Numbered from the stretch's first letter, positions 9,753 to 46,017 are shown. The stretch is DNA of 48,756 bases from an uncultured Planctomycetia bacterium (GCA_964580895.1 CAZOMD010000001.1:1-48756); one strand, 5' to 3'. The notes: a model not told the origin generated them from the letters alone. Translations and numbers: made by a program.

Positions 9753-9820
9753 GAACTTACGCCTCCCGGCCTTGTATTATAAGTAATTATTATCCGTAAA
9801 ACCCGTGTTTCAGATCTTTC

Positions 9821-10094
9821 GTAACAGTTCAGCTATCCACAGTAAGATAAAAGCTCTGTGCTAAAGGGTGGATACCGGGATATGCCGAGAATTTAGTAAA
9901 GTCTTGCGCATCCTGGCCAGCCATATAAACGGCTAGGGCGACGGGAAGGATGCTTTTGAGCATTGAGCGGTCTATGGCCGACAGGATATGAATAATTTAA
10001 GCTTCCCCGCTAAGCTACGCCTGAAGAACAAAAATAATAAATAGACCGCCAGAAGCGCAAAAAGCATCCTTCCCGCGGATAACCGAACTATTAC
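9821..10094 (+). repeat. 274-bp TIR-bounded structured repeat, copy A (MITE-like or ncRNA)
   Basis: Roughly 90% identical by eye to 41747-42020 in the same orientation. Ends gtaacagttcagctatcc / ggataaccgaactattac are inverted repeats. Nested internal stems: gggaaggatgctttt/aaaagcatccttccc, gcggtctat/atagaccgc, atgct/agcat, agctt/aagct. Confidence 0.85.
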
Positions 10095-10141: not shown

Positions 10142-10203
10142 GTCCGCTAACACTCCCAACCGGCGAACTGGTTAACTGGCGAACCAGCAAACCAAATAAC
10201 AAC
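10142..10203 (+). repeat. Degenerate 8-nt periodic array (NNGNNAAC)
   Basis: cggcgaac tggttaac tggcgaac cagcaaac caaataac, with the AAC triplet recurring exactly every 8 nt. Confidence 0.8.
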
Positions 10204-10226
10204 CTATTGACTCCTGAAACCTACTT

Positions 10227-10817
10227 ATGCTAAACTTTTACATCATGAGTCTCATTCCCAAACATAAAAATAACGAATTGGTAAAATACGGAAAGCTTCT
10301 CCACGCCGAAAAACTGGTGATCGGTACGGGCGGCAATATCAGCGAAAGGGACGGGGTCTGTCTTATAATCAAGCGAAAAGGCGCCGATATGTCCGTCGCC
10401 GAGCCCGAAGACTATCTCCGGTTCACGTTCCTGGAAACGGAAGGCAAAGAACCCGCGACCATGAGCTCGGAAACCCCCGTGCATGTGGCGTGTTACAGGG
10501 CGAAGAAAGATATCGGCGCGATAATCCACGCCCACCCTTCATACGTCATCGCCGCGGCGGCAAGGAACGCGGCGCTTGAAGGCATATCTTACGAGTTCGA
10601 TTACATAATACAGTCTCCGGTACCGCTGCTCGAGTATATTTCGCCGGGCTCAAAAGAGCTCGCCGAAGCCGTCGCACGCGAAGTAAAGAACGGCGCCAAC
10701 GCGGTTCTGCTCAAAAAACACGGCGCTTTCACTTTCGGCACGGACCTTAACGAGGCGTTCACAAGGATGGTCGCGCTTGAGCGGGCGGCTATCACCTATC
10801 TCCACAGCCAAAAGTAA
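10227..10817 (+). CDS. Class II aldolase/adducin-family protein (MtnB/FucA-like)
   Basis: GTGGNISER, IIHAHPSYVIAAA and LLKKHGAFTFG motifs. ATG at 10245 is an alternative start if TTGACT (10207)/TAAACT (10231) is the promoter. Confidence 0.75.
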   Translation: MLNFYIMSLIPKHKNNELVKYGKLLHAEKLVIGTGGNISERDGVCLIIKRKGADMSVAEPEDYLRFTFLETEGKEPATMSSETPVHVACYRAKKDIGAIIHAHPSYVIAAAARNAALEGISYEFDYIIQSPVPLLEYISPGSKELAEAVAREVKNGANAVLLKKHGAFTFGTDLNEAFTRMVALERAAITYLHSQK

Positions 10818-12909: not shown

Positions 12910-13391
12910 GGTTCGACTACCGCCATTTCTATCCCGGCTTCTTCTATAAATTTCAGGGCAAAATCATCCGGATAACTGCCCTGTATGACTATCTTCTTGA
13001 TCCCGACGTTTATTATCATCTTAGCGCATATGCTGCACGGTTGCGTAGTCACGTATAATACCGCCCCTTCTAAGCTGGAGCCGTGCCTTGCCGCCTGTAA
13101 AAAGGCGTTCTGTTCCGCGTGAAGGGCTCTGCATAGTTCGTGTCTTTCTCCCGACGGCACGCCAAGTTTTTCCCTGAGACACCCGACCTTGTCGCAATGG
13201 ATTATCCCTGTCGGGGCGCCGTTATACCCGGTCGCGAGTATCTGTTTATTTTTTACCACGACCGCCCCTACCTGTCTCCTTAGGCACGTGGACCTCGTGG
13301 AAACAAGACGCGCTATGCTGAGAAAATACTCATCCCAGCTCGGACGCGGGATCTCGCTTATCACAGTTTTTTTGCTTGTTTTATTTTTCAC
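12906..13391 (-). CDS. dCMP (deoxycytidylate) deaminase
   Basis: HAEQNA...PCSICAKMI zinc-binding motifs of the CMP/dCMP deaminase family. 4-nt overlaps with glyA and nrdR. Confidence 0.85.
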
Positions 13392-14650
13392 TCCGCCTCC
13401 ATCTCATCTATCCAATTCTTGTATAGCGGAAAACTTTTGAGCATCTCCTTGACACGTTGTTTTATCGACGCCAAGGTCTTATCGTTTTCCCGCGCGTTCA
13501 GGGCTTCGTCGATAAGCCCAGCTACGACATCCATCTCATTCTCTCCCATCCCTCGGGTCGTGACCGCGGGCGTTCCGAGCCGGATCCCGCTTGTAACGAA
13601 CGGGCTTTTGGGATCAAACGGTATAAGGTTCTTATTCACGGTTATGCCCGCTTTGTCCAGGCATATCTCAGCCTCTTTCCCGGTTATACCTTTACCCGAA
13701 AGGTCGACCAGCATAAGATGATTGTCCGTCCCGCCGGACACTATCCTATATCCTTTTTTCTTGAGCTCCTCGGAAAACCTCTTCGCGTTCTTTACCACTT
13801 TCCCCTGATAGTCCCTGAACCCCGGTTCCAACGCCTCCTTGAACGAAACGGCCTTCCCGGCGATAACGTGCATGAGCGGCCCTCCCTGTATGCCCGGGAA
13901 GATCTCCGAATCGATCTTTTTAGCGTATTCCGCCCTGCAAAGGATCATGCCGCCCCTCGGCCCGCGCAGCGTCTTATGTGTGGTGGTCGTGACAAACTCC
14001 GCGTGAGGCACAGGGTTAGGATGTATCTCGGCCGCCACAAGCCCCGCGATATGGGCCATGTCCACCATCAGTATGGCGCCTATCTCGTCGCAGATGGCCC
14101 TAAACTTCGCGAAATCTATCTCCCGAGGATACGCCGACGCCCCCGCGAGTATCATCTTCGGTTTATGTTCGAGAGCTTTCGCGCGTATCTCGTCGAAATC
14201 CAGCCTTTCAGTTTTCCTATGCACGCCGTAAGAGATCACATTGAAATATTTGCCCGAAAAATTTTTTTTGTGCCCGTGAGTAAGGTGTCCCCCGCAGGAT
14301 AGGTCCATCGCAAGGACGGTATCGCCAATATTCAGCATGGAAAAATATACCGCCATGTTCGCCTGGGAACCGGAATGCGGCTGCACGTTTACATGTTCCG
14401 CCCCGAAAAGTCTTTTCGCCCGTTCGATAGCTAGGCCTTCCGCCACGTCGATGAACTCGCACCCCCCGTAATAACGGGCATGGGGATATCCCTCGGCGTA
14501 TTTATTCGTCATGGCCGATGAGACCGCGCCCATTACGGCCCTAGAGGCAAAATTCTCGCTCGCGATGAGCTCGATGCCCTCGTTCTCCCTTTTCGTCTCG
14601 TTCAGAACAGCCTGGAATATTTCCGGATCGGTCTCTTTTAAATGTTTCAT
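13388..14650 (-). CDS. glyA: Serine hydroxymethyltransferase
   Basis: [21 protein letters not shown] and [14 protein letters not shown] motifs. Confidence 0.95.
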
Positions 14651-14750: not shown

Positions 14751-14873
14751 CGGGCTGGTCCTGTCGGCGTCCATTCTGCGCGCATCTGATTCGCCTCCAC
14801 TAAAGTTTCGGCGAATCCTGCTGTGCTCGAATTCCCGCCGCCACCCGCCTTGTATAAAATCTTTTTTCAACAG
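14751..14873 (-). promoter_or_regulatory. Conserved structured 5' leader of glyA (candidate riboswitch, copy 1)
   Basis: Minus-strand RNA blocks GCGGGUGGCGGCGGGAAUUCGAGCACAGCA and GAUGCGCGCAGAAUGGACGCCGACAGGACC are shared with the purB leader. Between them is an 8-bp hairpin, GGAUUCGCC...GGCGAAUC. The upstream CTGTTGAAA is also shared. Confidence 0.6.
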
Positions 14874-14875
14874 TT

Positions 14876-15343
14876 TCAAGTTATTCCTTTTTTGAACAGT
14901 TTTTTCTCTATCTTGAGTATCTGCCGGACCCTTCTTTTATGTCTTCCCCCCAGGGCCTTGGTCTCGAGCCACGTTTTCGTTATTTCGGCGGCTTTAGCAT
15001 AACTGGTCTTGTTCGCGGCAAGCACAAGAACGTTCGCGTCGTTATGCTGCCGTGAAGACAAAGCGTCCTCCACGGAATTACATAGCCCTGCCCTTACTCC
15101 GGGCAGCTTGTTGGCGATGATGGACATCCCTATACCGCTCTTACAGATAACTACGCCTCTTGAGGCCTTCCCGGACGATACCATCCGCGCCGCCTCGTAC
15201 CCATATTCGGGATAATCGACCGGCTCGGGAGAATCCGTTCCGACATCCGTTACGGGATATCCCTCTTTTTTCAACAACGTTTTTACCCGTTCTTTAAGCT
15301 CGTACCCCCCGTGATCCGCGCCGATAGCTATTCTTTTAGCCAT
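14876..15343 (-). CDS. rpiB: Ribose-5-phosphate isomerase B
   Basis: IAIGADHGGYELK...VVICKSGIGMSIIANK, the RpiB/LacAB pattern. Confidence 0.9.
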   Translation of the reverse strand: MAKRIAIGADHGGYELKERVKTLLKKEGYPVTDVGTDSPEPVDYPEYGYEAARMVSSGKASRGVVICKSGIGMSIIANKLPGVRAGLCNSVEDALSSRQHNDANVLVLAANKTSYAKAAEITKTWLETKALGGRHKRRVRQILKIEKKLFKKGIT

Positions 15344-18794: not shown

Positions 18795-18859
18795 AGGACG
18801 TCCCACGTCCTACGAAACCGGCGGAACCAGTTAACCAGCGAACCGGCTAACCGGATAAC
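18795..18859 (+). repeat. Hairpin plus 8-nt periodic array (NNGNNAAC)
   Basis: gtaggacg-tccca-cgtcctac hairpin, then gaaac cggcggaac cagttaac cagcgaac cggctaac cggataac. The last units overlap the purB stop codon. Confidence 0.8.
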
Positions 18860-20145
18860 CCTATCCTCTTGAACACCTTATCGATGTGCCTGAAATGATA
18901 ATCCAGCTCGAAACAATCTTCTATCTCGTCTTCCGATAAATATTTTTTTACTTTGCCGCTTTTAAGCACTTCGTCTTTATAATCGCTTGAAGAGTTAACG
19001 GCTTTAAGAGCGAGCTCCTGCACGATATCGTACGCTTCGTTCCTTGTCGCGCCTTTCTTTATGAGCTCCAGGAGGAACCTTTGGGAATAAATAAGGCCTT
19101 TCGTCGCGGTCAAGTTCCGCAGCATGCGGTCGTCGTTGACCACAAGATTGGCGATAAGGTCTCTCGTTTTCATAAGCATGTAGTCAAGAAGTATGGTCGA
19201 ATCTGGGATGATGACCCTTTCGACCGAAGAATGGGATATGTCTCTCTCGTGCCATAGCGCCACATTTTCTATCGCGGCTGTCGCGTTCCCCCTGAGTATC
19301 CTCGCCAGACCAGTTATGCGTTCCGAGATTATGGGGTTCATCTTGTGCGGCATACTTGAAGAACCCGTCTGCCCTTTCGCGAAATATTCCTGGACCTCGC
19401 CTATCTCGGTCTTTTGAAGCCCCCTCACTTCCAACGCGATCTTTTCGAGCGTCGCCCCCGTGATGGCCAGCATGTTAAGATAATAAGCGTGCCTGTCCCT
19501 CTGCAATACCTGGCTCGACACCCCTGCCGCTTTTAACCCGAGCTTTTTGCATACATGTTCCTCCACGTCCGGGTCGACGTTCGCGAACGTGCCTACGGAA
19601 CCGGAAATCTTCCCTACGGCGATGGTTTCTTTTGCGCTCTTAAGCCTTTCAATATTGCGCCCCATCTCCGTGTAATATATCGCGAGCTTAAGCCCGAAGG
19701 TTATCGGCTCCGCGTGAACCCCGTGAGACCGGCCTATCATCGGGGTCTTTTTATGCTTCAACGCTTTTTCCTTCAGCGCGTTCATGACAAGCTCGGCGTC
19801 TTTTATCAGAAGGTCCGCCGCCTCGGCCATCTGCGCCGAAAGCGCCGTATCGAGAATATCGCTGGAAGTAAGCCCAAAATGAAGATATTTCGCCTCTTCC
19901 CCGATATTTTCGGAGATGTTCTTTATGAAGGCCACAACGTCGTGATTTGTCTTCTCCTCGATCTCCCGTATCCTGTCAGCATCAAAGCAGGCTTTATCTT
20001 TTATTACCTTCAGCGCCGCCTTGGGGACGAGCCCTTTTTTCTCGAACGCTTCCGAGGCGAGTATCTCTATGTCCAGCATCTTGCGAAACCTGTTCTCCTC
20101 TTCCCATATCTTGCCCATCTCGGGCCTCGTATACCGTTTTATCAT
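18847..20145 (-). CDS. purB: Adenylosuccinate lyase
   Basis: The start MIKRYTRPEMGKIW matches the usual PurB N-terminus and follows AAAGAGGUGA. SSSMPHKMNP is the signature loop. The ORF extension to 20220 lies inside the leader element. Confidence 0.92.
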   Translation of the reverse strand: MIKRYTRPEMGKIWEEENRFRKMLDIEILASEAFEKKGLVPKAALKVIKDKACFDADRIREIEEKTNHDVVAFIKNISENIGEEAKYLHFGLTSSDILDTALSAQMAEAADLLIKDAELVMNALKEKALKHKKTPMIGRSHGVHAEPITFGLKLAIYYTEMGRNIERLKSAKETIAVGKISGSVGTFANVDPDVEEHVCKKLGLKAAGVSSQVLQRDRHAYYLNMLAITGATLEKIALEVRGLQKTEIGEVQEYFAKGQTGSSSMPHKMNPIISERITGLARILRGNATAAIENVALWHERDISHSSVERVIIPDSTILLDYMLMKTRDLIANLVVNDDRMLRNLTATKGLIYSQRFLLELIKKGATRNEAYDIVQELALKAVNSSSDYKDEVLKSGKVKKYLSEDEIEDCFELDYHFRHIDKVFKRIGLSG

Positions 20146-20198: not shown

Positions 20199-20303
20199 GG
20201 CGGGTCCTGTCGGCGTCCATTCTGCGCGCATCCGCGTTTCACTTGTGCTGCGCTCGAATTCCCGCCGCCACCCGCTTATAACTACCAAACTCTTTCAACA
20301 GTC
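20199..20303 (-). promoter_or_regulatory. Conserved structured 5' leader of purB (candidate riboswitch, copy 2)
   Basis: Same two conserved blocks as 14751-14849, but the central hairpin is replaced by a short 12-nt segment. GCGGGU/ACCCGC can close the element. It ends 54 nt before the purB ATG. Confidence 0.6.
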
Positions 20304-20467
20304 TTAATTTTAAGATCACGGAACTCCTTCGGGACATGGCGAAAGCCGAAGAACCGCCCGCTTTACGCGCTCCATCTCCCCCCGGAGTATTTTTTATATC
20401 ATAGGTAATACCCCGTTGTCAATTCGTATCGGGTGCATGGTTTGCCGGATGGCCGGCTCATCGTGAA

Positions 20468-21149: not shown

Positions 21150-21623
21150 CTAAAACTTGAAATGCTTCTGCGGGCTCTCTTTTTTTATCTCTTCTTTGAT
21201 AATATCAATAAATTCGCGAGCTGATTTTAAGGCGCTCTTTACGTCAGTCATGGAAACATGAAATTTCCACGGCTCGTAAATAAAATTATTCCGATTCTTA
21301 CGCATATAGTCAAATTTTTCGGTTAGCGCCTTATACCTATCGCCCAAAAAGTGCGCCGTAAAGCCAACAACGGTTTTGTGCTGAAAATTTGCCGAAGGCC
21401 TGAAGCCTTTAGTAAACACAAACGCCCTGCCCGCATGAAGCATAGCGGTGTATGCCGTTTCATACGCATGCCCTTCATCTATCAACAATAATTTTTCTGA
21501 AACCTTAAGATCCTTTTCGGCTCTTTGGATCACTTTTCTTACTTGATCGAACCCCACTTTTTCCGGTTTGATCAGTTTCTTTTCCAGATATTCACTTAAA
21601 AAATCTTCAGAGGCCATTTTCAT
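21150..21623 (-). CDS. HEPN-domain protein (toxin of a HEPN/MNT pair)
   Basis: 157 aa helical protein with an R-N-R-N-x-x-x-Y motif (MRKNRNNFIYEP). It overlaps the upstream MNT gene by 17 nt. Confidence 0.75.
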   Translation of the reverse strand: MKMASEDFLSEYLEKKLIKPEKVGFDQVRKVIQRAEKDLKVSEKLLLIDEGHAYETAYTAMLHAGRAFVFTKGFRPSANFQHKTVVGFTAHFLGDRYKALTEKFDYMRKNRNNFIYEPWKFHVSMTDVKSALKSAREFIDIIKEEIKKESPQKHFKF

Positions 21624-22179
21624 TCCCCTTTATGAAAATTTTCTTACCGTTGACAATTTCTAATATGAAAGAATTTTTCTTTTTCTTTTCCTTTTTGTAT
21701 TCGCTTTCCGAGTAGCGCGTGTAATTAATTTCTTTGAATAACTTCTTTTCTATGTTGTTTATCGCCCCTATCAGTCCGCCCTCGTCAATATTGTCCCCTA
21801 TCAAAAACACATCAACGTCGCTATCCTGTCTTTCGTCGCCTTTCGCGAAAGATCCGTATATAAAAGCGGTTTTAACGCCCCTTACCCCGGGGATAGCGTC
21901 TTTTAAGAACTTTATAACACCATCGGTTTTATAGATGATGTTTTTAATTTCTTCATAAACCGGGTTTTGCTTATTCAAAGAAAACAGTTTTATATTGCCG
22001 ATCCGTCGCGCCTTGAGTATCCCCAAAGAGTTGAGCTTCGTTAGCTCTCTATGAAGCGCGCCTACCGATATGTGGTAGAGGCCGGCCAGCTGGCGGGTGT
22101 AGTATTCGGTATCGGGCGATTCGACGAACGCCTTCAGTATTCTTTGGCGAGTTTTTGAGCCTATTATGTTTTTTAACAT
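21607..22179 (-). CDS. Winged-HTH fused to a minimal nucleotidyltransferase (MNT antitoxin-like)
   Basis: N-terminal ArsR-like wHTH (RQRILKAF...YTRQLAGLYHISVGALHRELTKL). Nucleotidyltransferase motif YGSFAKGDERQDSDVDVFLIGD. Confidence 0.8.
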   Translation of the reverse strand: MLKNIIGSKTRQRILKAFVESPDTEYYTRQLAGLYHISVGALHRELTKLNSLGILKARRIGNIKLFSLNKQNPVYEEIKNIIYKTDGVIKFLKDAIPGVRGVKTAFIYGSFAKGDERQDSDVDVFLIGDNIDEGGLIGAINNIEKKLFKEINYTRYSESEYKKEKKKKNSFILEIVNGKKIFIKGNENGL

Positions 22180-28848: not shown

Positions 28849-28929
28849 ATCCCAACTCTGTCTCTTTTTCAACGTTTTCGCGAAACATAAAGAAAAATTG
28901 CGGGTTGCCGGAAGATCGATACTCTGGAG

Positions 28930-29048
28930 CTTGTTTTTGTTATTTTAAACTTCCAGTTCCGGGAAATGACCTATGCTGCGAAACGGTAACGGGGTCAGTT
29001 CCCGGAAATGGAAGTTTCCCGTCCTTCGGAACCGGTTAACCGGCGAAC
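28930..29048 (+). repeat. Direct repeat Rc copy 1, with a 24-bp-arm imperfect hairpin
   Basis: Matches 31013-31118. Arms aacttccagttccgggaaatgacc (28948-28971) and ggtcagttcccggaaatggaagtt (28993-29016) pair at 22/24 around a 21-nt loop. Confidence 0.85.
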
Positions 29049-29096
29049 CCTGCCTACCGGCAGGCAGGCAACGGCGTCCCTCGCCCCTCGGAACCC

Positions 29097-29133
29097 CCTC
29101 TGACTCTTTGACTCTCTGAATCTCTGACTCTTT
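29097..29133 (+). repeat. 8-nt periodic array (YNTGAMTC)
   Basis: ctgactc tttgactc tctgaatc tctgactc. Related arrays at 43527-43560 and, inverted, at 20468-20490. Confidence 0.8.
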
Positions 29134-29138
29134 ATAAT

Positions 29139-29186
29139 CAACCAACGAACCGGCGAACAGGCAAACCGGTAAACTGGCTAACCAAC
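29139..29186 (+). repeat. 8-nt periodic array (NNGNNAAC)
   Basis: caac caac gaac cggcgaac aggcaaac cggtaaac tggctaac caac. Confidence 0.8.
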
Positions 29187-29209
29187 TCCTCCACCCGCTC
29201 CGCCAGACA

Positions 29210-29776
29210 TCACGGCTGGGTAGTAGTCATCGTCCCGTCAAATGTCGAAATCTCTTCTTTCGGCTTTAAAGCGATCTTAAGGCCGAGGGTTTTGGCGATC
29301 TTATTTATTGTTTTGAACGAGAAATTGATATTGCCGTTCTCTATAGAAGAGATGGTCTGCTGCGATACGCCAGTCTCTTTTGAGGCGTTTTTTTGTGTCC
29401 AGGCTTTTCCTTTTCTGGCCTTTCTGAGCGTACTTCCGATCTCGACCATTTCTTTTTCAGCTGTTTTTTTTACCGCTTTTTTCGCGCCGATCTTCCCTTT
29501 ATCGATATTCTTTAAAGCGATTTTATAAACTTCGTCCCAAAAAATAATTCTCTTATCGTTCCACTTATTTTGGCGCATCCGCCTTTTAATGGCGTTCCAA
29601 TTCCGGCAAAAGACGATCACATCAAGATATTCCGAAAAAACTTCTTTCGGCGTATTCATCCTTGATAACAGCAAAGAGGCATATTCAATAAATTTCGCGT
29701 TCGAACTATCTTTTAAGACCTTCTTGATCTTATCTATATCGGAGTTTTTATCCCAGAAAATATTATCGCTCATCAT
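29210..29776 (-). CDS. XRE-family HTH protein with an unknown N-terminal domain (putative antitoxin)
   Basis: C-terminal WTQKNASKETGVSQQTISSIENGNINFSFKTINKIAKTLGL is an HTH_3-type motif. ATGA overlap with the upstream AbiEii gene. Confidence 0.75.
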   Translation of the reverse strand: MMSDNIFWDKNSDIDKIKKVLKDSSNAKFIEYASLLLSRMNTPKEVFSEYLDVIVFCRNWNAIKRRMRQNKWNDKRIIFWDEVYKIALKNIDKGKIGAKKAVKKTAEKEMVEIGSTLRKARKGKAWTQKNASKETGVSQQTISSIENGNINFSFKTINKIAKTLGLKIALKPKEEISTFDGTMTTTQP

Positions 29777-30492
29777 AATTCATCCTCGATCTCAGCTTTA
29801 ACGATCCTTTCGATCTCATCCCTAAAATGCCTCTCTATTTCCCGATAATCGATCCTCTGTTGAGTTATTATATCTAAAAGATCGCCTTTGATCGTATTCC
29901 TATCATAGGATCTATACCACAGGACCAATCCCTCTTTCATTACCGCGGTACAGAATTTCTTCGCGAAGTCTGAAAGGGGCAGAAAGGTCTTTGAAAGATG
30001 ATATAGGTCAAAAAAATCCTTGGCTTCCTGCCGTCCTCCATAAAATCTTTTTTTGCCAACGTCATCCGTTTGAATAAAACTTCCGCTAACCGTGAATATT
30101 TTCCTTAAATATATATCGTTAAGAGATAGGACCGGCACCCCTTCCATCATTTTAAGCGGCTCAAGTAACTTATGATAATCTTCAATAAAATCAAGTTTAA
30201 GAACTTCTTCAGAACCGGCTATCGGAACAGAATAAACCATCATTTTAGCCATATCCACAGTCTTTTGTTCCCCGATCAACTTGATCTCAACTTTAATCGA
30301 ATCTGAAATATGCGCGACGATATCGTTGATCTTCTTTTTATTAAAATCTTGAGTAAAAAAATCGAGATCAAAAGATTCCCTGTGCTCAAAGTAAAATAAT
30401 GACAAAGCTGTTCCTCCGGCTAAATAAAAGCCCGCCAGCTTCTTTGCCAAAACTGCCAACACTTTATCCCTTAATTTTAAAACCTTTTTCAT
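29773..30492 (-). CDS. AbiEii/AbiGii-family nucleotidyltransferase (type IV TA toxin-like)
   Basis: FYLAGGTALSLFYFEHRESFDLDFF matches the DUF1814/AbiEii N-terminal signature. Confidence 0.75.
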   Translation of the reverse strand: MKKVLKLRDKVLAVLAKKLAGFYLAGGTALSLFYFEHRESFDLDFFTQDFNKKKINDIVAHISDSIKVEIKLIGEQKTVDMAKMMVYSVPIAGSEEVLKLDFIEDYHKLLEPLKMMEGVPVLSLNDIYLRKIFTVSGSFIQTDDVGKKRFYGGRQEAKDFFDLYHLSKTFLPLSDFAKKFCTAVMKEGLVLWYRSYDRNTIKGDLLDIITQQRIDYREIERHFRDEIERIVKAEIEDEL

Positions 30493-30965: not shown

Positions 30966-31012
30966 TTTGTTCCGCGGATGGTTGAAATGTTACGAAAATC
31001 GAGAATTCGGAT

Positions 31013-31118
31013 CTTGTTTTTGTCGCCTTGGACTTCCAGTTCCGGGAAATGACCTCTGCTGCGAAACGGTAACGGGGTCAGTTCCCGGAAATGGAAGTTT
31101 TCCGTCCTTCGGAACCGG
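31013..31118 (+). repeat. Direct repeat Rc copy 2, with the same long hairpin
   Basis: See 28930-29048. Lies immediately 3' of the giant operon. Confidence 0.85.
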
Positions 31119-31159
31119 CTAACTGGCTAACCGGTTAACTGGCCAACCGGCGAACCAAC
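31108..31159 (+). repeat. 8-nt periodic array (NNGNNAAC)
   Basis: cggaac cggctaac tggctaac cggttaac tggccaac cggcgaac caac, with exact period 8. Runs into the stop codon of the giant ORF. Confidence 0.85.
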
Positions 31160-34100
31160 TACACCGCGCTCGCTATTTTCTCCGTCTCGGCGTTATATCT
31201 CGCTTTAAGCACTTCCAACTCGAGCTTTCCCGCCGTCGGGATGAATATAAAATTCCTCGCCGTCTCTCCTTCCGAAACAAGAATGAACGGGTCGTTTATT
31301 ATTGTGTCCCCGTCGAACGCGAGTCTAAGCGCTATTTCTATCATCCGGAGAAGCCTCACATCGCCGGTTTCCGGGAAACTCTCAAGGCGCGACACCTCGG
31401 CGAAGAACGCCCATTTCGACGCGTCGTCCCCCGGCCGTAACCAGTCAAACGCGCTACCGTCGAAAATCCCTTCTTTACCCAAAAGTACTATATTAGACAG
31501 TGGTATCTTCATGAACTTATTCGTATCACGGCTAAGTTCATCCATTTTTGAACTGACTTCGGAAGCAAGCCCCTCGGCGTTCCCCCTGACTATAATGATG
31601 TTATTTAACCCTTTCTTTTCGGAAAGTTTCGTAAGCTCGTTCACAAGGCCCTGTATGGCCGCCCTTTGCATATCCGGGATCCAGCTCGTGTCTATCCCTA
31701 CAATAACCCCTTCATTTTTTCTCTTAGCCTCATATGCCCTCGCCACTAACTGATCAAAGAGGCGCTGGACTTCTTTTGCCGCTTTTCCATCTTGTTTTAT
31801 CCCGGCCTCTTCCCTTTCGATATCGCGGACGGCTTTTTCGAGATCGTTGAAAAATTCGCGGGCTTTCGTTTCAAAGAACAGCAGATAGTCGTGCATAACA
31901 CGCGTCTCGGGATATTTTTCTGCCGGTATTATTTTTTTGAATTCCTCTCGTGTATGAGCGATGAGTTTAAGATGTTTTTCTTTTAGCGCCAATATCTCCG
32001 TCACAGTATCGCGCGCCGGCGGATAGTCATAATTGAGCCGGGAATATTCCGGAAGGCTGCCCTTGAAGCTGTAAAGTTCAGTCTCCAGGTCCTTATATAA
32101 TTCAAATATTTTTTCCTTTGTTTCGCCGTCTAACCCGACTCTTTTCGAGTTTATCTTCAGCCCGATGACAATAAGCGCGTTCTTGGGATGGTCCCAGACA
32201 TATTGCCCCGCGACATAAAGCAGATAGTTATATGAAGCTTCGGGACAGGTGACTTTCATTTCCGACCGGTATTCCGGCGAATTAAGGCGCCGCGCTCTTC
32301 CAAACGTGCTTTCCTCGTTACGCACCCTGTCCGCGGGATCTTTCCACGCATCCAGATATTCTTCGCCGTACGGCTCCTCGCCCGGCGCCGCGCTTTTTTC
32401 AGCGGGAGGCGTCTCCGTCTTCCCGGCAAGAGTAGAGCCGTCTTTATCTTTCGGTATTTTGATAGTAAATACGGAGCCCTTACCTTCTTCCGAATGGATG
32501 TCGATCCTCGCGCCGTGGTCCTTCAGGACATACCATGCTTCGGCGAGACCTAACCCCGTCCCGGTTTCTTTTGTCGTGACATTAATGTCGTATATCGCCG
32601 GCCTTCCGTTTGGCCCTATTTTTAAGAAATCACTCGCCACTCCGCCGCCATTATCCTCTATCTTTATCGCCACCCAATCCCCGTCTTCCTCAATATCTAT
32701 ATCCACCCTCATGTCCTTTTGTCCGGAATATTTCCCGGCGCTTGACCACGCGTTCCGCACGATATTGGCGACCGCGTTCAGCAGAGACAGCCTGTCCCCG
32801 GATATATACATTTCTTTTTCCGGTACGCTTCGCATCCCCACGCCGTACAACATGGCCTCATCCGGATACCTGCCCGTATTCCACCGAGCCGCGTCCTCAA
32901 CAAGTTTTTTTATCCCGATCTTCTCTTCCGATGTTCTGCCGTCCGCGAACCTAAGCCGGTTATTCAAGATCTCTTTCGCCAGGTGAAGATGTTTTACCAT
33001 TCTTTCCAGATCCGGAAGTCTTTTCTCTCCCAAAGCGTTCTCCCCAAGCGAGGAGCGGCCCGATCCCAGCTTGCATGCCTCCATGAACGAATTCGCGGTT
33101 TCATACAATTCGTCCGCCTCGCCGGTAAGCTTTTCCAAAGTGCCGCGCCATTCATTGATTTCATCCGGATCATCCTGTTTTATCAGGGTTATTTCCCTGA
33201 CTTTAAAATAAAGATCTTTTACGTCTTTCTCCAGCTTTTTACACTTCTCTATCTTCGCGCGCGTTTCGTCCGGCATAAGTCCGCCAAGATCCCCGTCTTT
33301 AAAGGCCATAAAGGCGTCAACCAGCCTGGCCCCCGGGTCTGTCGCCGGGCCGTGATCAAAGGTCCTGATTGCGATCGCGACGCGTTCGGCCTTTTCCCTT
33401 ATCTCGTTCCGCTGGACCTTGATCGCTTCCTGCTTTTCTTTTTCCTGGATAAGCCTGTACGCTTTATAAAGCGTTTCTTCCTTGGCGGGGCTGAATATCC
33501 TCATGTCGCCGTAATCGGCGACAGCCCGTTCCTTAACGGCATCCTCTATCTTTATGCTCGAGGTCATCTCGATGAGTTTTTCGAGCCTCGAAGTTATGTC
33601 TATCCTGCGGAATATATTATTGAATTCGTACGCGCTTGAAGACCCGGCGTCCCCGGAGGTGCTAACGGAGATCTTTAGTTTCAGGTCAAAATTATATCTG
33701 CCGCCAAAAAGCTCTTTAAGCCTTTCCTCGGAGCGGCGCTTCACGTTTATCAAGATATCGGTCAGGACATTTATGAACCTGTCTTGATCTATCCTGTCTT
33801 CGAGGGATATCAGGAATCTGTCCGGCGGGGACCTCCCGAAAACAGCTTTCGTAATATCGGAGCTCTTGAACGCTTTCTCTATCTCTTCCGCGAGAACGGT
33901 AATGACGAGGTTCGCGTCGTCGTGCCCGAGGGCGGCGTTAAGCGCGTGGAACCCGCCTTTTTCGCGTGAAAGTTCCCCGGTATACGAAGTTATCTCAAAA
34001 GCCATGAGCGTTTCGCCGATCCTATCCCTGAACTTATCCTCCTCATAAAATCCGGTGAGGGTATCTATCCCTTCTTCCTTCTCGCCGCTTCCGAGCTTAA

Positions 34101-36300
34101 CGAGCTTCGTTCTAAGGTCTTTCCCCTCAAAAGAACCGATATCTTGGGCGATATACACGGCATTCCGCGTCTTTTTAGCCTTACGAAGCGCGTCATCGGC
34201 GAGTATCATCCCCAGGGAATAGATCCGTTCAAGCGTTTCTTCGTCTTTAATGAACCCGTCCGCGTCGAGAAGCGCCGCTCCGTCCGTTCCCTCTAATTTT
34301 TCGATAAGGCTTTTTGCCGATACCGCGCCCATGGATACCGTTACCGCCGGCATATTCCCTTCGTTAAAGTCCAGGGGAACGAGCGTATTCCCGAAGTTCT
34401 CGTTCAACATCCGTAAATACAGGTCGAATGGTTTCTCGTTCCTTTTGACAAGAACGTGATACCCGTTACCGTACCTGACCACGCTAAGAACATCCGGGTT
34501 GTAATAAAGAAGCATCTGTTCCCTGGGCGTAAGATCGCCGGCTTCCGCGACAGCGTACTTCCCCTTAAAAGACGTGTTGAACTTTTCTCTTATGTAATTA
34601 AGTTTCCCCTCGAGGTTCCCTACTTTTATCGAGCCTCCCACCGGCATGAATTCGTCCCCCGAAAGGTACCGGTAAACTTCCATCTCCTGGATAGAGAATT
34701 CCTTGGCAAGTGTTTCGAGCATCTCCTTAAAAAGCGAATGTTTTGAGAAAATAACGTCCGGGTCAACAGGTTCCTCCAAAATGCCGATTACACCCTTTGA
34801 ATAGATCCTATTCCGCCGGCTTAGCCTATCAATGTCACCAAGTATAAAGTAATGGTCGTCCGCGTTAAAATTCACGGCCCTTAGCTTTTCTTTCGCGGAA
34901 CGTATGCCTTCTTCCCGTGAAAGCGGTAAAAGCGTGTCTTCCCGCTCCCCGGCTGTACGCGTCATATTCCCCATATTCGCCCAGAACGCGCCGGGAGTAT
35001 CTGTCCGCACTTCGTGCCGGTAGAGATAAGAAACACTATCGATGAGATCGTTTATAAAGGCCATATCGCCTTCAGCGCCGGTCCCGTAAAACGATCCTCT
35101 CATTTCGTACAATATGTCTAACATTTTGGGAACAAGTTTTCCCGGATCTTCGTAAACGCTTATTTCGGTGCTGAAGTTCCTGGCATGATCTTCTTTTTCC
35201 TTGGTATCCGCATCCAAAAGGACCAGGTCTCGCAAAGGCTTAAGGACCCTTGGGCCGGAAACAGCCGCATATGATCTTTTTAAGGTAGATACAAGAACGG
35301 AAAGGACCAGGAGATTGAAATAATATTGTTTTTCGGGCATGCCAAGTTCCTTTATGCCGCTCAGCGTTTCCACGAACTCGACGAGGTCTTCCTTGGTCAT
35401 ATCTTCATTCCATTTTAGATCAAGGAGGTCGCCCGTTACTGCCTGGAGTTTCAAGAGCTCCTCAAAAAGGCTCTCTCCCCTTAAAGCCTCGCGATCGGAG
35501 GGAACGCCGCGTAGCGCGAGGATAGCCAGGATCTCTTCCCGCGCGTCATCTTTTTCGGCGCTGGCGGGCCGTGCGCCCAGCCCCTTAAGAACGGAGAGGA
35601 CCTTCTCGCGTTTCGGCGGGCTTAGGTCGGCCGCCCTGTATAAAGAGCCTTCATTCGAAAGCTGCTTCTCGACAAGCCCGAGGTATATAAGCGTCCCGAG
35701 GTCGCGCAGTACCGTTTCGGACGAAAGATGCCCGTCCGGCATCCTGCCGATAGTCTCTTCCCGTATCGAGCCGGCATCAACGAACGCGCCGTTATATTTT
35801 ACGGTAAGAACATCGAAAATATTGTATGGCGAGCCGTCCGGTTCGGTTCTCTTCTTCGGGGTGCCCCTCTTCGTTTTTAGCGGACCAACCTTCCGCAAAA
35901 TCACTTTTGCGTTCTTTCTTTTGCTGTTTTTTGCAGAAAAGATCTCCCAGAGCTTTTCCGTGGGTTTCGTGATAAAATTTATGCGGTTATCTATTTTCGC
36001 GAGAAGTTTTTTCTTCAGGCTATCACTTAGCTTCGCTTTTCCTATCTCTTTTTTTAAAGCAACAAGAGACCACCTGACCCAAAGATCGTTTATGACCTTT
36101 GATATCCAGGCTTCTTCGATTTTCCAGTGAGCCGCCAAAAAAACAGGGTCGAAATTAACTATTTCCTTTAGTTGTTTAACAATGAGGGGCCTGTATTTCT
36201 TGTTTTCGGTTATCTGCCCGCGGCGGTATTCCCTTCCCAGAAAATCCTCCACTCTTTTAAGGCGCGCCTTTGTCGATAAATAGTTTATTCCATATGACAT
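31159..36300 (-). CDS. Giant multidomain protein B (1713 aa): K/R linker+GSPY module, two GGDEF-type palm domains, coiled coils, HK-type HATPase_c, unknown C-terminal domain
   Basis: Palm 1: ILGDIDRL...YRYLSGDEFMPVG...TVSMGAV. Palm 2, degenerate: GGFHALNAALGHDDANLV...FGRSPPDRFLISL...KISVSTSG. HATPase: NIVRNA, IEDNGGGV, GTGLGLA, GKGSVFTIKIP. The start overlaps the end of ORF A by 44 nt; a GTG at 36255 is an alternative start. Confidence 0.8.
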   Translation of the reverse strand: MSYGINYLSTKARLKRVEDFLGREYRRGQITENKKYRPLIVKQLKEIVNFDPVFLAAHWKIEEAWISKVINDLWVRWSLVALKKEIGKAKLSDSLKKKLLAKIDNRINFITKPTEKLWEIFSAKNSKRKNAKVILRKVGPLKTKRGTPKKRTEPDGSPYNIFDVLTVKYNGAFVDAGSIREETIGRMPDGHLSSETVLRDLGTLIYLGLVEKQLSNEGSLYRAADLSPPKREKVLSVLKGLGARPASAEKDDAREEILAILALRGVPSDREALRGESLFEELLKLQAVTGDLLDLKWNEDMTKEDLVEFVETLSGIKELGMPEKQYYFNLLVLSVLVSTLKRSYAAVSGPRVLKPLRDLVLLDADTKEKEDHARNFSTEISVYEDPGKLVPKMLDILYEMRGSFYGTGAEGDMAFINDLIDSVSYLYRHEVRTDTPGAFWANMGNMTRTAGEREDTLLPLSREEGIRSAKEKLRAVNFNADDHYFILGDIDRLSRRNRIYSKGVIGILEEPVDPDVIFSKHSLFKEMLETLAKEFSIQEMEVYRYLSGDEFMPVGGSIKVGNLEGKLNYIREKFNTSFKGKYAVAEAGDLTPREQMLLYYNPDVLSVVRYGNGYHVLVKRNEKPFDLYLRMLNENFGNTLVPLDFNEGNMPAVTVSMGAVSAKSLIEKLEGTDGAALLDADGFIKDEETLERIYSLGMILADDALRKAKKTRNAVYIAQDIGSFEGKDLRTKLVKLGSGEKEEGIDTLTGFYEEDKFRDRIGETLMAFEITSYTGELSREKGGFHALNAALGHDDANLVITVLAEEIEKAFKSSDITKAVFGRSPPDRFLISLEDRIDQDRFINVLTDILINVKRRSEERLKELFGGRYNFDLKLKISVSTSGDAGSSSAYEFNNIFRRIDITSRLEKLIEMTSSIKIEDAVKERAVADYGDMRIFSPAKEETLYKAYRLIQEKEKQEAIKVQRNEIREKAERVAIAIRTFDHGPATDPGARLVDAFMAFKDGDLGGLMPDETRAKIEKCKKLEKDVKDLYFKVREITLIKQDDPDEINEWRGTLEKLTGEADELYETANSFMEACKLGSGRSSLGENALGEKRLPDLERMVKHLHLAKEILNNRLRFADGRTSEEKIGIKKLVEDAARWNTGRYPDEAMLYGVGMRSVPEKEMYISGDRLSLLNAVANIVRNAWSSAGKYSGQKDMRVDIDIEEDGDWVAIKIEDNGGGVASDFLKIGPNGRPAIYDINVTTKETGTGLGLAEAWYVLKDHGARIDIHSEEGKGSVFTIKIPKDKDGSTLAGKTETPPAEKSAAPGEEPYGEEYLDAWKDPADRVRNEESTFGRARRLNSPEYRSEMKVTCPEASYNYLLYVAGQYVWDHPKNALIVIGLKINSKRVGLDGETKEKIFELYKDLETELYSFKGSLPEYSRLNYDYPPARDTVTEILALKEKHLKLIAHTREEFKKIIPAEKYPETRVMHDYLLFFETKAREFFNDLEKAVRDIEREEAGIKQDGKAAKEVQRLFDQLVARAYEAKRKNEGVIVGIDTSWIPDMQRAAIQGLVNELTKLSEKKGLNNIIIVRGNAEGLASEVSSKMDELSRDTNKFMKIPLSNIVLLGKEGIFDGSAFDWLRPGDDASKWAFFAEVSRLESFPETGDVRLLRMIEIALRLAFDGDTIINDPFILVSEGETARNFIFIPTAGKLELEVLKARYNAETEKIASAV

Positions 36301-39300
36301 AATTACCCAGCTCGTCTTCGACTCCGACTTCTCCGGCGACGAGCAGCCTGATGTCGTCCTTAAGCGACGCGCCGGACCTTATGTTGTTATCCAGCCCCTT
36401 GGCTATATCCACCAGGTGCGTGAAAGACCTGGGGGTATTCTCCTCTTTAAGGTTCATTAACACGGCGTAGGGCGAGCCCTGCGGGATGTTTTTTTTGTAA
36501 ATGAATTTCTTCCTGAACGTTTCCATGCTGTTAAAAAAGATATCCGCCTGATCGAGGATATCGAGCTCTTTTTTAGCGCGAGGCTTACGATCAGTTTGGA
36601 CCGTTTTCTTGCTTTTTCGGGATTTTTTACGGACCGCGGCTCCCCCTTCTTCATCCTCTTCCTCTTTAACGCTGTCATCTTTCGCGGGATCATAGGACCG
36701 GAAGATCTGGCCCATATAACTTACGGGATATCCGACCCCGCACAAAAGCCCCGCGAGATTGTCGGCCGTGAGAAGCGCGAACTCTTTGTCTTTTCTCCAG
36801 GCTTTTCGAAAAAGCCTCAGGAACGCCTCTTTCTCGTCTCCGCCGGTTGCCTTCAACAAGCCGGCGAATTCCGCCGGGAGGTCCAGCCATTTTCCCATAT
36901 AATGCGTGTAAAGATTATCAAACGATCCCATCCTCATCACCTTAAATCCCGCGTTATAAAGCGCCTGCGCGAGATATATGGAATTTATCTCCCCGTAAGG
37001 CTTCAATCTTCTTTGGGTCTCTTTGAACGCGATAAGTTTTTGCTGGGGTCTTTTTGCGAGTTCTTCCTGAAACACGGCCCCGGCCCACATGGAATCGGCC
37101 ATCCTGAATCCCGGCTCGTGGAGGAACGGCTCCTTTATCGTCCTTTTCCCGTATATCTTCATATACTTCGCGAGCTCGTCGTTAAAACTCTGCGGGATTA
37201 TTTTCTCCATCGAACTTTTTACGGCGTACTTAAGACATAAGTTCCCTTTCTTGTCGGTGAAGGTCACAAGATACGCCAGGGGCCGATTCTTATTATCCCG
37301 GCACCTGATAAGAACGAACTCCGCCCTTTCTTTTAGAAAATCGTACCTGTATTTATCTTTCTTCGTGCTAATCACTAATGGTTTCGCCCCGCCAAGTGTC
37401 ATCTCATGGACCTCGGGCTCTTGCGCCGACAACCACCTGCCAGATCTCACTTTAACGATTTCCGGTTTCCTTTTCCTGGATGTAATGGGAAGCCCCGAAA
37501 GCCTAAGAAGGAGACGCAGGTTCTTGTTTGTGAACAACGGGTGGTACGCTCCGGCGAACCGCATCCTCTCAAAGAGATCATCATAAGCCGCCGCGGGCGT
37601 CATCCTTCGTAAAGACGCCTCATATATCTCGAGGATATCGAACGTCTTCTTCCTGCTTACGGTGGAATTATCAAGATAGTGTTTATATAATTTATATGCG
37701 TCGCTTATCCTTTTTATCTTGAACCCCGAGCCGGTCAAGATCCCCTCAAGGTTGCCGGCATTCAGGCGGGCGCGTTCCCCGTCAATGCGTGACGCCTCTT
37801 CCAATAACCGCACGAAGGCCTGGAAACAGGCGTCCTCGTTAAGGTATTCGGCGTATTTAGCCGGCAAATCGTACCCGAATTTTTCAAGATAATGCGTGTA
37901 AATCTTGTACTGGGTGCTAGACGTGATGACTGAAAAACCGAAGTTTCTCAGCACATTCTCAAGATTAGTCTCGGTAATCACTCCGTATTTATCAAGCTCC
38001 TTCTTCGTGTTAAAAAATGCAAAGAACGGCCGCGAGGGATCTTTCAATAATTCTCGTTGATAAACCGCGCCCGCCCACATGATATGCGCCTGGTCGTAAC
38101 TCGGAACGTCAAATCTGGAATCCTTATGGATGTTGTTCTTTTGTTCCGCGAGATGAGACTCGATCACGTCAAAAAAATCTTGCGGGACTTTTTTTCGCTT
38201 ATATTCATCCACAGCGTAGCGCATATTAATCCGCCCTATCTTGTCCGGATATGCCACGAGATACGCCAAGGGCGTCCCTTCAGTGTCCTCATATTTCATA
38301 ACGGTAAAAGCGGTATCTGCCGGTACGAAGTTATATTTCTTCGCCCCTTTTTGGGCTTTTAGAGAAAGTTTTTCGAGCGCCGGAAAATCCCCTTTTATGG
38401 TTATCGGAGGTTTAACGGTTATTTTTAGGCTCTTTTTGCGCCTCTTCACCTCGGCGGGAAGTTTTTGATCGATGAACGCTATGATCTCATCTTTTTCAGG
38501 GCCGTCGGCCATGATTACGCTAACGGCTTTTTTTGTCGCCGTTATGTTCTGCGTGAGCAATAGACCCTCTATGATGGATTTCAGTTTGGGGATATCGTTC
38601 TTAAAATTATCGACAGCACTTTCGGCGTTGTAAAAATCTATCTCTTTTAATTTGGCGATTATGATCTTCTTCTTCTCGCCGTTGCTATTCTTGGTTATAA
38701 GACCGTCCCTGTAATTGCGTTCGAGGAACATCTTCATCCTGAGGTATTTTTTCCAGCTTTCCTTGTCTTTCGTCAGGGCGCGGCTTATCGTATATTTCCC
38801 GGCGGCAGACTCCTCAACCACATACCCGGCACGCAGTATCTCTAAGTCATTCGCGATAGTATTAACGCTCATGATCTTTCCGTCCGCCATTCGGAGAAGC
38901 TCTTCTACGCTTACTTCTCGCCCTTCATGGTACGCTTTTTCCACGTTAACGAGGACGGCGTAGGGCGAACCCTGGAATTTGTGTTTTTTGCTTGGCTGAG
39001 GCCTTCTCTTTTCTTTTTTCTCTGGAAGGATCAGGTCCTCGATGGGACGGATATTCCTCGCTTTCGGCCTGAATTCGACGGATCCCTCAAAGAACGATGA
39101 GAGGTCAAAATAATATATGCCGCTTTCTCCATTTTCAAGGATCCTTTCGGTGATGACCTCTTCCGCCAGGCGCCGGCATGCCTCCTCCGTGTCCACCAAA
39201 AGCACGGGCCTGCCCTCTTGTCTTATCTTGTCCACATTTTCTTTTTTCAGGTTCGCGGCCCTGATCTTGAATTTCTTGTCGAATTTATTGTATTCCTGAT

Positions 39301-41599: not shown

Positions 41600-41653
41600 A
41601 TTTACTATTATTTCGTCTTGTATATAATAATCCTTCTGTGAAATGTGGCCAGC

Positions 41654-41683
41654 ATTATACCACCAAAAAGGCAGATACGTCAA
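41654..41683 (-). promoter_or_regulatory. Strong sigma70-type promoter of the giant operon
   Basis: Minus strand reads TTGACG, 18 nt, with TGgTATAAT as an extended -10. Leader of about 45 nt to the ATG at 41599. Confidence 0.65.
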
Positions 41684-41746
41684 TGAATATCTTCTTTTAT
41701 TTCTCTTAACAACGCCATTTTGGCTGCCCCGCTTCCCACAATGTTT

Positions 41747-42020
41747 GCAACAGTTCCGCTATCCACAGTACGGTAAAAGCTCTGCGCAAAAGGGTGGATA
41801 CCGGAATATGCCGAGAATTTAGTGAAGTCTTGCGCATCTTGGCCAGCCCTATGGACGGCTGGAGCGCCGGGAAGGATGCTTTTGAGCATTGAGCGGTCTA
41901 TGGCCGACAGGATATGAACAATTTAAGCTTCCCCGCTAAGCTACGCCTGAAAAACAAAAATAACAAATAGACCGCCAGAAGCGCAAAAAGCGTACTTCCC
42001 GCGGATAACTGAACTGTTAC
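41747..42020 (+). repeat. 274-bp TIR-bounded structured repeat, copy B
   Basis: See 9821-10094. Ends gcaacagttccgctatcc / ggataactgaactgttac. Lies about 65 nt upstream of the giant-operon -35 box. Confidence 0.85.
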
Positions 42021-43321: not shown

Positions 43322-43512
43322 CTAAACCCTAAATAAACTTAAAACTCGAAATACAAAACTCAGCGCCCAAACACCGAAGTGCCATTTTGCCCTTGTAACT
43401 TGGCAAATCTTTTAGTTCCACCCCATAGATTATTCTGTTTTGGGTTTTGCATTTGGACCATTTGAGTTTATTTAGAATTTAGTGTTTCGTGTTTAGAGTT
43501 TGTCATAACATT
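43322..43512. repeat. AT-rich long inverted-repeat element, copy 1
   Basis: Left arm aaactctaaaccctaaataaacttaaaactcgaaatacaaaac. Right arm gttttgcatttggaccatttgagtttatttagaatttagtgtttcgtgtttagagttt. Same family as 45786-45962. Confidence 0.7.
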
Positions 43513-43526
43513 GCCTCTTGCTTCTC

Positions 43527-43645: not shown

Positions 43646-45776
<2,131 letters not shown>

Positions 45777-45785
45777 AGTATTTGT

Positions 45786-45962
45786 AAAACTCTAAACCCT
45801 AAATCCCTGCCTGCCGGCAGGCGAAACTCTAAATAAATTTAAAACACAAAATATAAAACCACAAGTATCGAAACGTTTACCTAAATCGTATGGTTTTGGA
45901 TTTTTTTTTTTTGTTATTTGAGTTTATGTAGCATGTAGTGTTTTGTGTTTAGTGTTTGTCTT
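45786..45962. repeat. AT-rich long inverted-repeat element, copy 2
   Basis: Shares aaactctaaaccctaaat, aaactctaaataaa, atttgagtttat and tagtgttttgtgtttagtgtttgtc with copy 1. Carries an inserted ccctgcctgccggcagg hairpin and a T12 run. Confidence 0.7.
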
Positions 45963-46017
45963 GATTTTGCTTCTGTCTTGTAACATCTAACGCCTGATCC
46001 CTTCCCTATCTTCACTA

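Follow-up and report, generated by a model that had tools for sequence, protein, structure and literature searches.

Two copies of an element with a predicted structure occur on the minus strand of the window, the whole stretch of 48,756 nucleotides that was analysed: one on the glyA side (14753-14849) and one on the purB side (20200-20275), both sense to the downstream gene. The reading that is tentatively preferred here, at something short of even confidence, is a lineage-specific cis-acting leader RNA bound by a sequence-specific trans-acting factor. Transcription, action as RNA, binding of the factor and regulation are steps that we infer. The element is known from these two copies on one metagenome-assembled contig only.

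The element and its predicted fold

The features on which the analysis rests are the following, all on the minus strand.

14753-14849, minus strand: glyA-side copy, core hairpin (sequence; MFE and centroid structures identical; z = -4.2; RNAalifold in agreement; 127 bits with covariance model R1)
14788-14818, minus strand: variable tip (P5) of the glyA-side copy, an 8-bp hairpin GGAUUCGCC...GGCGAAUC to which the purB copy has no counterpart
14865-14882, minus strand: upstream box of the glyA copy, AACTTGAAACTGTTGAAA, 16 nt 5' of the core and overlapping the rpiB stop codon (14876-14878)
20200-20275, minus strand: purB-side copy, core hairpin (sequence; MFE and centroid structures identical; z = -3.4; 100 bits with model R1)
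20233-20245, minus strand: variable tip of the purB-side copy, 13 nt, CAAGUGAAACGCG, with a weak 3-bp GUG/CGC hairpin
20293-20310, minus strand: upstream box of the purB copy, AAATTAAGACTGTTGAAA, 17 nt 5' of the core
13388-14650, minus strand: glyA (serine hydroxymethyltransferase, SHMT), downstream of the glyA-side copy (Pfam SHMT, E = 5.7e-170)
18847-20145, minus strand: purB (adenylosuccinate lyase), first gene of the cluster (Pfam; N-termini of relatives)
20382-20422, minus strand: purB promoter (TTGACA, 17-18 nt, TATAAA, then AATACTCCGG), conserved with relatives

The original prediction of two blocks shared by the glyA and purB leaders on the minus strand is borne out. The blocks, GCGGGUGGCGGCGGGAAUUCGAGC(A/G)CAGCA and GAUGCGCGCAGAAUGGACGCCGACAGGACC, measure 30 and 30 nt, and the number of such block pairs expected by chance is 0. 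Probes taken from them, a 21-mer from the 5' block (GGTGGCGGCGGGAATTCGAGC) and a 25-mer from the 3' block (GCGCAGAATGGACGCCGACAGGACC), occur exactly twice each in the window at up to three mismatches, and shuffled sequences give 0.01 and 0.00 occurrences. Alignment of the two copies shows identity at 63 of 65 core positions. The core comprises about 76-97 nt, the copies differing by 19 nt in length, and the segment between the blocks takes up 32 nt in the glyA copy, including the 8-bp tip hairpin that had been described there and is confirmed. In the purB copy this segment is 13 nt long, not 12 as first given.

An upstream box of 18 nt (AAYTTRARACTGTTGAAA, 15/18 identical) precedes the core by 16-17 nt in both copies, and the spacer between box and core cannot be aligned between them. 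Local alignment of the 50-nt upstream flanks was matched or beaten by 1.35% of shuffles; the similarity of the downstream flanks of the two copies is not significant. A near-identical core and box, set against an unalignable spacer and tip, points to an old duplication with purifying selection on the core sequence, and thereby supports a function.

Folded separately, each copy is predicted to form the same unbranched rod, for which RNAalifold gives the same helices, so that the conserved core with a variable tip suggested at the outset stands as a predicted structure. The rod proceeds from P1 through a 2x5 loop (GG/ACAGG), P2 (CGGCG/CGCCG), a 3x3 loop (GGA/GGA), P3 (AUUC/GAAU) and a GA/A loop to P4 and the variable tip. 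The ends pair as had been proposed, P1 being GCGGGU/ACCCGC in the purB copy and GGCGGGU/ACCAGCC in the glyA copy, where it is longer by one G-C pair and contains a single G.A mismatch. P4 is GCAC-A-GCA/UGCGCGC in the glyA copy and GCGC-A-GCA/UGCGCGC in the purB copy. The internal loops are unequal in size on the two arms (2 vs 5, 3 vs 3, 2 vs 1) and purine-rich on the sense strand only (GG, GGA, GGA, ACAGG, GA), and the GAATTC and GCGCGC inside the element are palindromes themselves.

None of 200 shuffles folds as well as the sense strand of either copy (z = -4.2 for glyA, -3.4 for purB), and folding of the antisense strand is just as favourable (z = -4.9 and -3.4). Since both strands fold alike, folding energy cannot tell which strand matters, or whether RNA or DNA does; the element is no less an imperfect palindrome of DNA than a hairpin of RNA. 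Compensatory changes between the two copies amount to 0 in 23 pairs, and each of the three inter-copy differences within the modelled helices costs one copy a standard pair there. With two sequences and no homologue, covariation cannot be tested. Identical stems free of compensatory changes point to recognition by a sequence-specific protein (or a transposase-like enzyme), or else to a repeat family with a variable centre; had structure alone been selected, some compensatory changes would be expected. Such sequence identity of the stems is rarely seen in old RNA paralogues and is characteristic of repeat families.

Inspection by eye of the 5' block revealed four G-runs with single-nucleotide separators (GGGUGGCGGCGGG; 14837-14849 and 20263-20275), from which a two-tier G-quadruplex competing with P1/P2 could in principle form. 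Several other identities were discarded. By eye, a k-turn lacks its defining GA/AG pairs and an attC site its RYYYAAC/GTTRRRY ends. A small open reading frame was considered on account of a peptide, MRAEWTPTGPA, common to both copies, but the 19-nt difference shifts its frame relative to the 5' block, and a Shine-Dalgarno (SD) sequence is present at the glyA copy only.

Genomic setting and distribution

According to Pfam, the minus-strand cluster is ordered purB, purM, purD, purE, a low-molecular-weight phosphatase (LMW-PTP), rpiB, glyA, dCMP deaminase and nrdR, an order conserved in relatives. By SHMT and PurB the organism belongs to the Omnitrophota, its best relatives being only 80% and 76% identical, and the window's own proteins form single-member clusters. 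The glyA copy had been placed in a plain 5' untranslated region (UTR); it lies instead in a 225-nt intercistronic spacer between rpiB and glyA, beginning 27 nt past the rpiB stop codon. In a BLAST of the purB leader, the promoter was recovered as 32 nt at 91% identity to relative L032, and also in L207 and L208. The promoter is ancestral and would give purB a 5' UTR of about 240 nt, with its copy of the element lying about 110 nt into it. From the 3' end of the element to the AUG there are 54 nt at purB and 102 nt at glyA. The conserved purB promoter upstream and the position of the glyA copy within an operon that is unbroken in relatives make it very probable that the two copies are transcribed in sense, perhaps as parts of a single long mRNA.

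In the public annotation, purB (457 aa) begins with the ATG at 20220, which lies within the repeat (MDADRTRLL...). The PurB proteins of most relatives begin MI(K/E/D)RY, equivalent to 20145 in the window, so the true start is 20145 and the extra 25 residues are an artefact of the repeat.

The 48.7-kb window holds 23 gaps of at least 60 nt, the element occupying two of them and the other 21 being empty of it. Four of the 23 gaps lie directly upstream of purine or one-carbon genes, and both copies are among these. The probability of finding both copies there and in sense comes to about 0.006, and to about 0.02 if orientation is disregarded; the figures are post hoc, the finding having been selected for this association. 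No element precedes purN (45156-45776), a purine/folate gene of the window, as judged with model R1.

The orthologous leaders of the Omnitrophota relatives examined (SHMT/PurB identity 74-80%) are all devoid of the element. Their rpiB-glyA spacers mostly measure 19-31 nt or contain unrelated hairpins, and their purB leaders, of about 55-75 nt and in L207 about 215 nt, are all unrelated to it; blastn of the window's leaders against the relatives returned the promoter only, and model R1 found nothing in the relatives' loci. The long purB 5' UTR of L207 (L207:1000-1218) forms a long hairpin of its own, unrelated to the element, which in Rfam gave no family and only chance matches of miRNA type. 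In the window, model R1 recovers the two copies only (127 and 100 bits). The next match, at 18.7 bits (38607-38692), was rejected, as it has no P3 and lies inside a giant open reading frame.

Wider collections were scanned with a degenerate pattern in which 19 loop and closing nucleotides were fixed, the stems left free (N/S) and the centre allowed 19-49 nt; it recovers both window copies as a positive control. There were 19 matches in 596 Gb of GTDB species genomes, 36 in JGI metagenome contigs and 6 in IMG/VR (N-stem version, gap of 20-50), and none of these has complementary P2 and P3 beyond chance. The only match that passed a loose stem filter, L174, was set aside, about 0.6 such matches being expected by chance. 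Two looser viral patterns returned nothing from IMG/VR, and blastn in distant mode gave nothing significant among plasmids and phages. A six-frame peptide-word query of the blocks against 5.8 billion protein clusters yielded two candidates sharing words, neither of which scored, and where PurB and SHMT gene calls are over-long, their extra N-terminal residues bear no relation to the element. Because the pattern scans demanded strict, exact matches, divergent relatives may have escaped them. An absence of further homologues and of covariation had been named beforehand as the outcome that would count against a regulatory leader, and within the reach of these searches neither was found.

Leader RNA, repeat, riboswitch or DNA cassette

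According to the preferred reading, one copy would be transcribed within the long purB 5' UTR and the other within the rpiB-glyA spacer. The P1-P4 rod, with its three purine-rich internal loops and a tip free to vary, would act as a sequence-specific docking site for a trans-acting factor, more probably a protein than a metabolite, and this factor would couple the expression of both halves of the purine/one-carbon cluster, the purB segment and the glyA segment. The likely route would be mRNA processing, stability or translation initiation and not a terminator/antiterminator switch; the A/U-rich single-stranded spacer before P1 would suit an endonuclease cut leaving a protective 5' hairpin. In favour of a leader RNA are the two copies, the same fold in each, the sense orientation of both and the purine/one-carbon genes that follow both gaps. 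Against it count the lack of any homologue, the 0/23 compensatory pairs, the equal folding of the antisense strand and the absence from orthologous positions in relatives, together with an unrelated palindrome in the same two gaps of the nearest relative (one copy outside the purB transcript), other two-copy intergenic repeats in the window, and a purN without the element.

What the leaders lack bears on the route. Neither contains a terminator-like site (0 in both), and the sequence after the core, AGAAAAAC at glyA and CUGUUGAUAAA at purB, contains no U-tract, so that the element itself was rejected as an intrinsic terminator. Whole-leader folds revealed no pairing of the element with the SD or AUG, and neither leader has an anti-SD segment. 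With no terminator, no SD pairing and 54 or 102 nt between element and AUG, a classical riboswitch of the terminator or SD-sequestering kind is unlikely, and a role in stability, processing or protein binding is preferred. These negatives concern terminators and SD pairing; Rho- or RNase-dependent platforms may exist.

A genome-specific palindrome of REP/BIME or MITE type, lodged in a few roomy gaps with no specific link to purines, is a possible if somewhat doubtful explanation, and would have at most the generic effect of a hairpin on mRNA ends. REP and BIME elements are repeated extragenic palindromes of Gammaproteobacteria and others, and in E. coli their linkers are variable. Not considered in the original prediction, it is the rival given most weight here, and it has positive evidence: an imperfect GC-rich palindrome in AT-rich, putatively transcribed intergenic DNA, folding equally on both strands, near-identical between copies of one genome down to the stems, with zero covariation and a centre that varies between inverted arms as BIME linkers do. 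It is absent from the orthologous sites of relatives and from every collection scanned, no expression platform was found in either leader, and the window contains many other intergenic repeats, including families D1-D4. If the gaps tolerate insertion and a repeat of this type lodged there, its absence elsewhere, the identity of the stems, the symmetry of the strands and the lack of a platform would all be accounted for, and its hairpin could have a role at mRNA ends.

By both SHMT and PurB, the closest relative is ENA contig k141_1281015, which adds to this evidence with a GTAGCCGGG..CCCGGCTAC hairpin of its own in the same two gaps. This palindrome of 26-27 nt, GTAGCCGGG(G)...CCCCGGCTAC, is unrelated to the element and starts with GTAG, the hallmark tetranucleotide of REPs. 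Its first copy is in the rpiB-glyA spacer (L001:1431-1457), and its second (L210:1334-1359) is 57 nt upstream of the purB -35, outside the purB mRNA. The same region also contains a second copy of a tRNA-Met 3' end (ctccccccgcaacca; L210:1246-1315), about 190 nt downstream of the intact tRNA, which has the appearance of a scar left by integration of an element into the tRNA-Met gene.

Other properties fit a REP-like repeat poorly. In 48.7 kb only two copies were seen, the remaining 21 gaps of 60 nt or more being empty, and both lie sense-upstream of functionally linked genes. At 76-97 nt, two to three times the length of a single REP, and with three conserved asymmetric internal loops, the element is more elaborate than typical REPs. 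The GTAG/CTAC beside the stem is not conserved, GTAG following the glyA copy only and the purB copy having GTTG, and neither a Y1 (RAYT) nor any other transposase occurs among the window's open reading frames run through Pfam. A box at fixed distance with a non-conserved spacer is hard to square with one mobile unit. Direct repeats resembling CTGTTGAWAAA do flank the core, itself an inverted repeat, matching at 9/11 positions in each locus and identical from one locus to the other, but the non-conserved spacer lies within them and they do not amount to a clear target-site duplication.

A new metabolite riboswitch, in which a rod aptamer with a purine-rich internal-loop pocket would govern purB and glyA in response to a purine/one-carbon signal (for example ZMP/ZTP, PRPP, a folate or a purine base), is considered unlikely. 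Purine and one-carbon genes such as this pair are classic targets of PurR and of the ZTP, THF, purine and PRPP riboswitches, the core is conserved with a variable distal stem, and the copies lie in sense orientation in leaders that are probably transcribed. There are nevertheless no homologues and no covariation, stems are identical between the paralogues, no terminator or SD-sequestering alternative structure is present in either leader, sister lineages with the same operon are without the element, and purN is not preceded by it. Rfam also gave no riboswitch. At gathering thresholds, Rfam 15 found two tRNAs only in the whole window, and at E<=10 with permissive filters nothing in either leader (300-350 nt) matched the core; three matches outside it (AMV_RNA1_SL, snoZ165 and the XIST A repeat) were dismissed as chance. 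The ZTP, THF, purine, glycine and PRPP/ykkC identities were rejected on the same scan, in agreement with the original view that neither the ZTP nor the glycine class fits, and in eight relative loci Rfam 15 returned no riboswitch, only tRNAs and chance matches. A riboswitch would thus have to be of a very rare class, with an unconventional terminator-free platform, acquired and duplicated in one Omnitrophota lineage, a combination that seems improbable.

Known systems offer partial parallels. The ZTP (pfl) riboswitch, RF01750, serves the same regulon (glyA, purine genes) and shares GGCG...CGCC pairing beside conserved purines, but the element has neither its pseudoknotted two-subdomain architecture nor a 3' element of CCGCCUGGGC type. 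Rod-like aptamers with pockets in internal loops exist in the THF-II/folE motif and the NMT1/xanthine riboswitch. Like these, the element is one elongated hairpin with conserved internal-loop nucleotides and a purine/folate link; unlike them, it has roughly double their length, lacks an SD in or next to its 3' strand, and shows no sequence or covariance-model similarity to them in the scan of all Rfam. A precedent for a structured leader that is rare, narrow in distribution and placed upstream of a de novo purine gene is the Fibro-purF motif, a purF leader RNA of Fibrobacter with a three-stem junction, SD-proximal and known from 30 representatives in one lineage, whose ligand is unproven and whose sampling is too sparse for firm covariation (PMC7668255). 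The present element differs in being an unbranched rod, without a branch point in model R1 or the MFE structure, and in having two representatives in one genome.

The term riboswitch-like in the original prediction therefore describes a possibility and not a finding: the shared predicted structure outside any known family stands, and a homologue, covariation and a recognisable platform are all wanting. The alternative offered beside it, a protein-binding leader, fits the data slightly better, with the binding presumed.

A cassette acting at the DNA level, that is, a duplicated promoter or operator with the box as a -35-like sequence and the palindrome as a transcription-factor site or cruciform, is very unlikely. 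The box does contain TTGAAA, the glyA copy allows TTGAAA-17 nt-TATACA ending 2 nt before the core, the palindromic GAATTC and GCGCGC are present, and both strands fold alike. The promoter scan, however, found no sigma-70-like site in either region, the -35/-10 assignments disagree between the copies, and a conserved purB promoter already exists about 110 nt upstream. A dimeric DNA binder would also be poorly suited by arms whose spacing differs by 19 bp between copies and whose internal spacing is unequal.

Other repeats in the window and significance

Several further features were noted. Tandem arrays of period 8 (AACCGGCK/AACTGGYT-like, 4-5.5 units) occupy 10150-10206, 18817-18865, 29098-29131, 29140-29196 and 31113-31169, in intergenic DNA and at the purB stop codon; the relatives have arrays of the same period and different sequence (L211:1378-1420, L005:1410-1473). 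A 277-nt repeat, D2, with 92% identity between its copies (9818-10094 and 41744-42020), contains nested inverted repeats with 16-nt perfect arms at 9942-9957 and 10060-10075. Its copies are upstream of, and sense to, plus-strand sugar-phosphate genes, a class II aldolase and a PfkB kinase. Rfam gave no match to D2, which was also not found in the relatives and could be a structured leader or a mobile element. A link between D2 and the glyA/purB element through a shared 10-mer, GCCGACAGGA, was rejected as being at chance level, about 12 10-mers being expected per query and many seen. The class II aldolase gene (10227-10817), which adjoins D2, is inverted relative to L031 and L209, which suggests a local rearrangement. 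Two other intergenic repeats occur in two copies each, one of 139 nt with 25-nt palindromic arms (28911-29049 and 30994-31132) and one of 87 nt (43437-43523 and 45893-45979), of which one copy is upstream of purN. Features at 661-1194, 21150-22179, 29210-30492 and 31159-41683 include a SpoVG homologue with an inserted zinc ribbon, a HEPN/nucleotidyltransferase pair and an AbiEii/HTH pair, both toxin-antitoxin-like, and two adjacent giant open reading frames of 1713 and 1808 aa, the second without a Pfam domain.

A search of the literature for Omnitrophica riboswitches or for glyA/purB motifs returned nothing relevant. To our knowledge, the Omnitrophota have no cultured model and no known riboswitch at purine or one-carbon genes. 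If the element is a REP-like repeat, two related genomes would have unrelated palindromes at the same two operon gaps, which is relevant to how such repeats select their sites or persist in them. Should it be a regulatory RNA instead, it would provide a new leader class for purine and one-carbon genes in a phylum without a cultured model, as well as a clean case of a regulatory cassette copied within one operon. Matching nothing known, the element would, if functional, represent a new class within the cis-acting leader RNAs.
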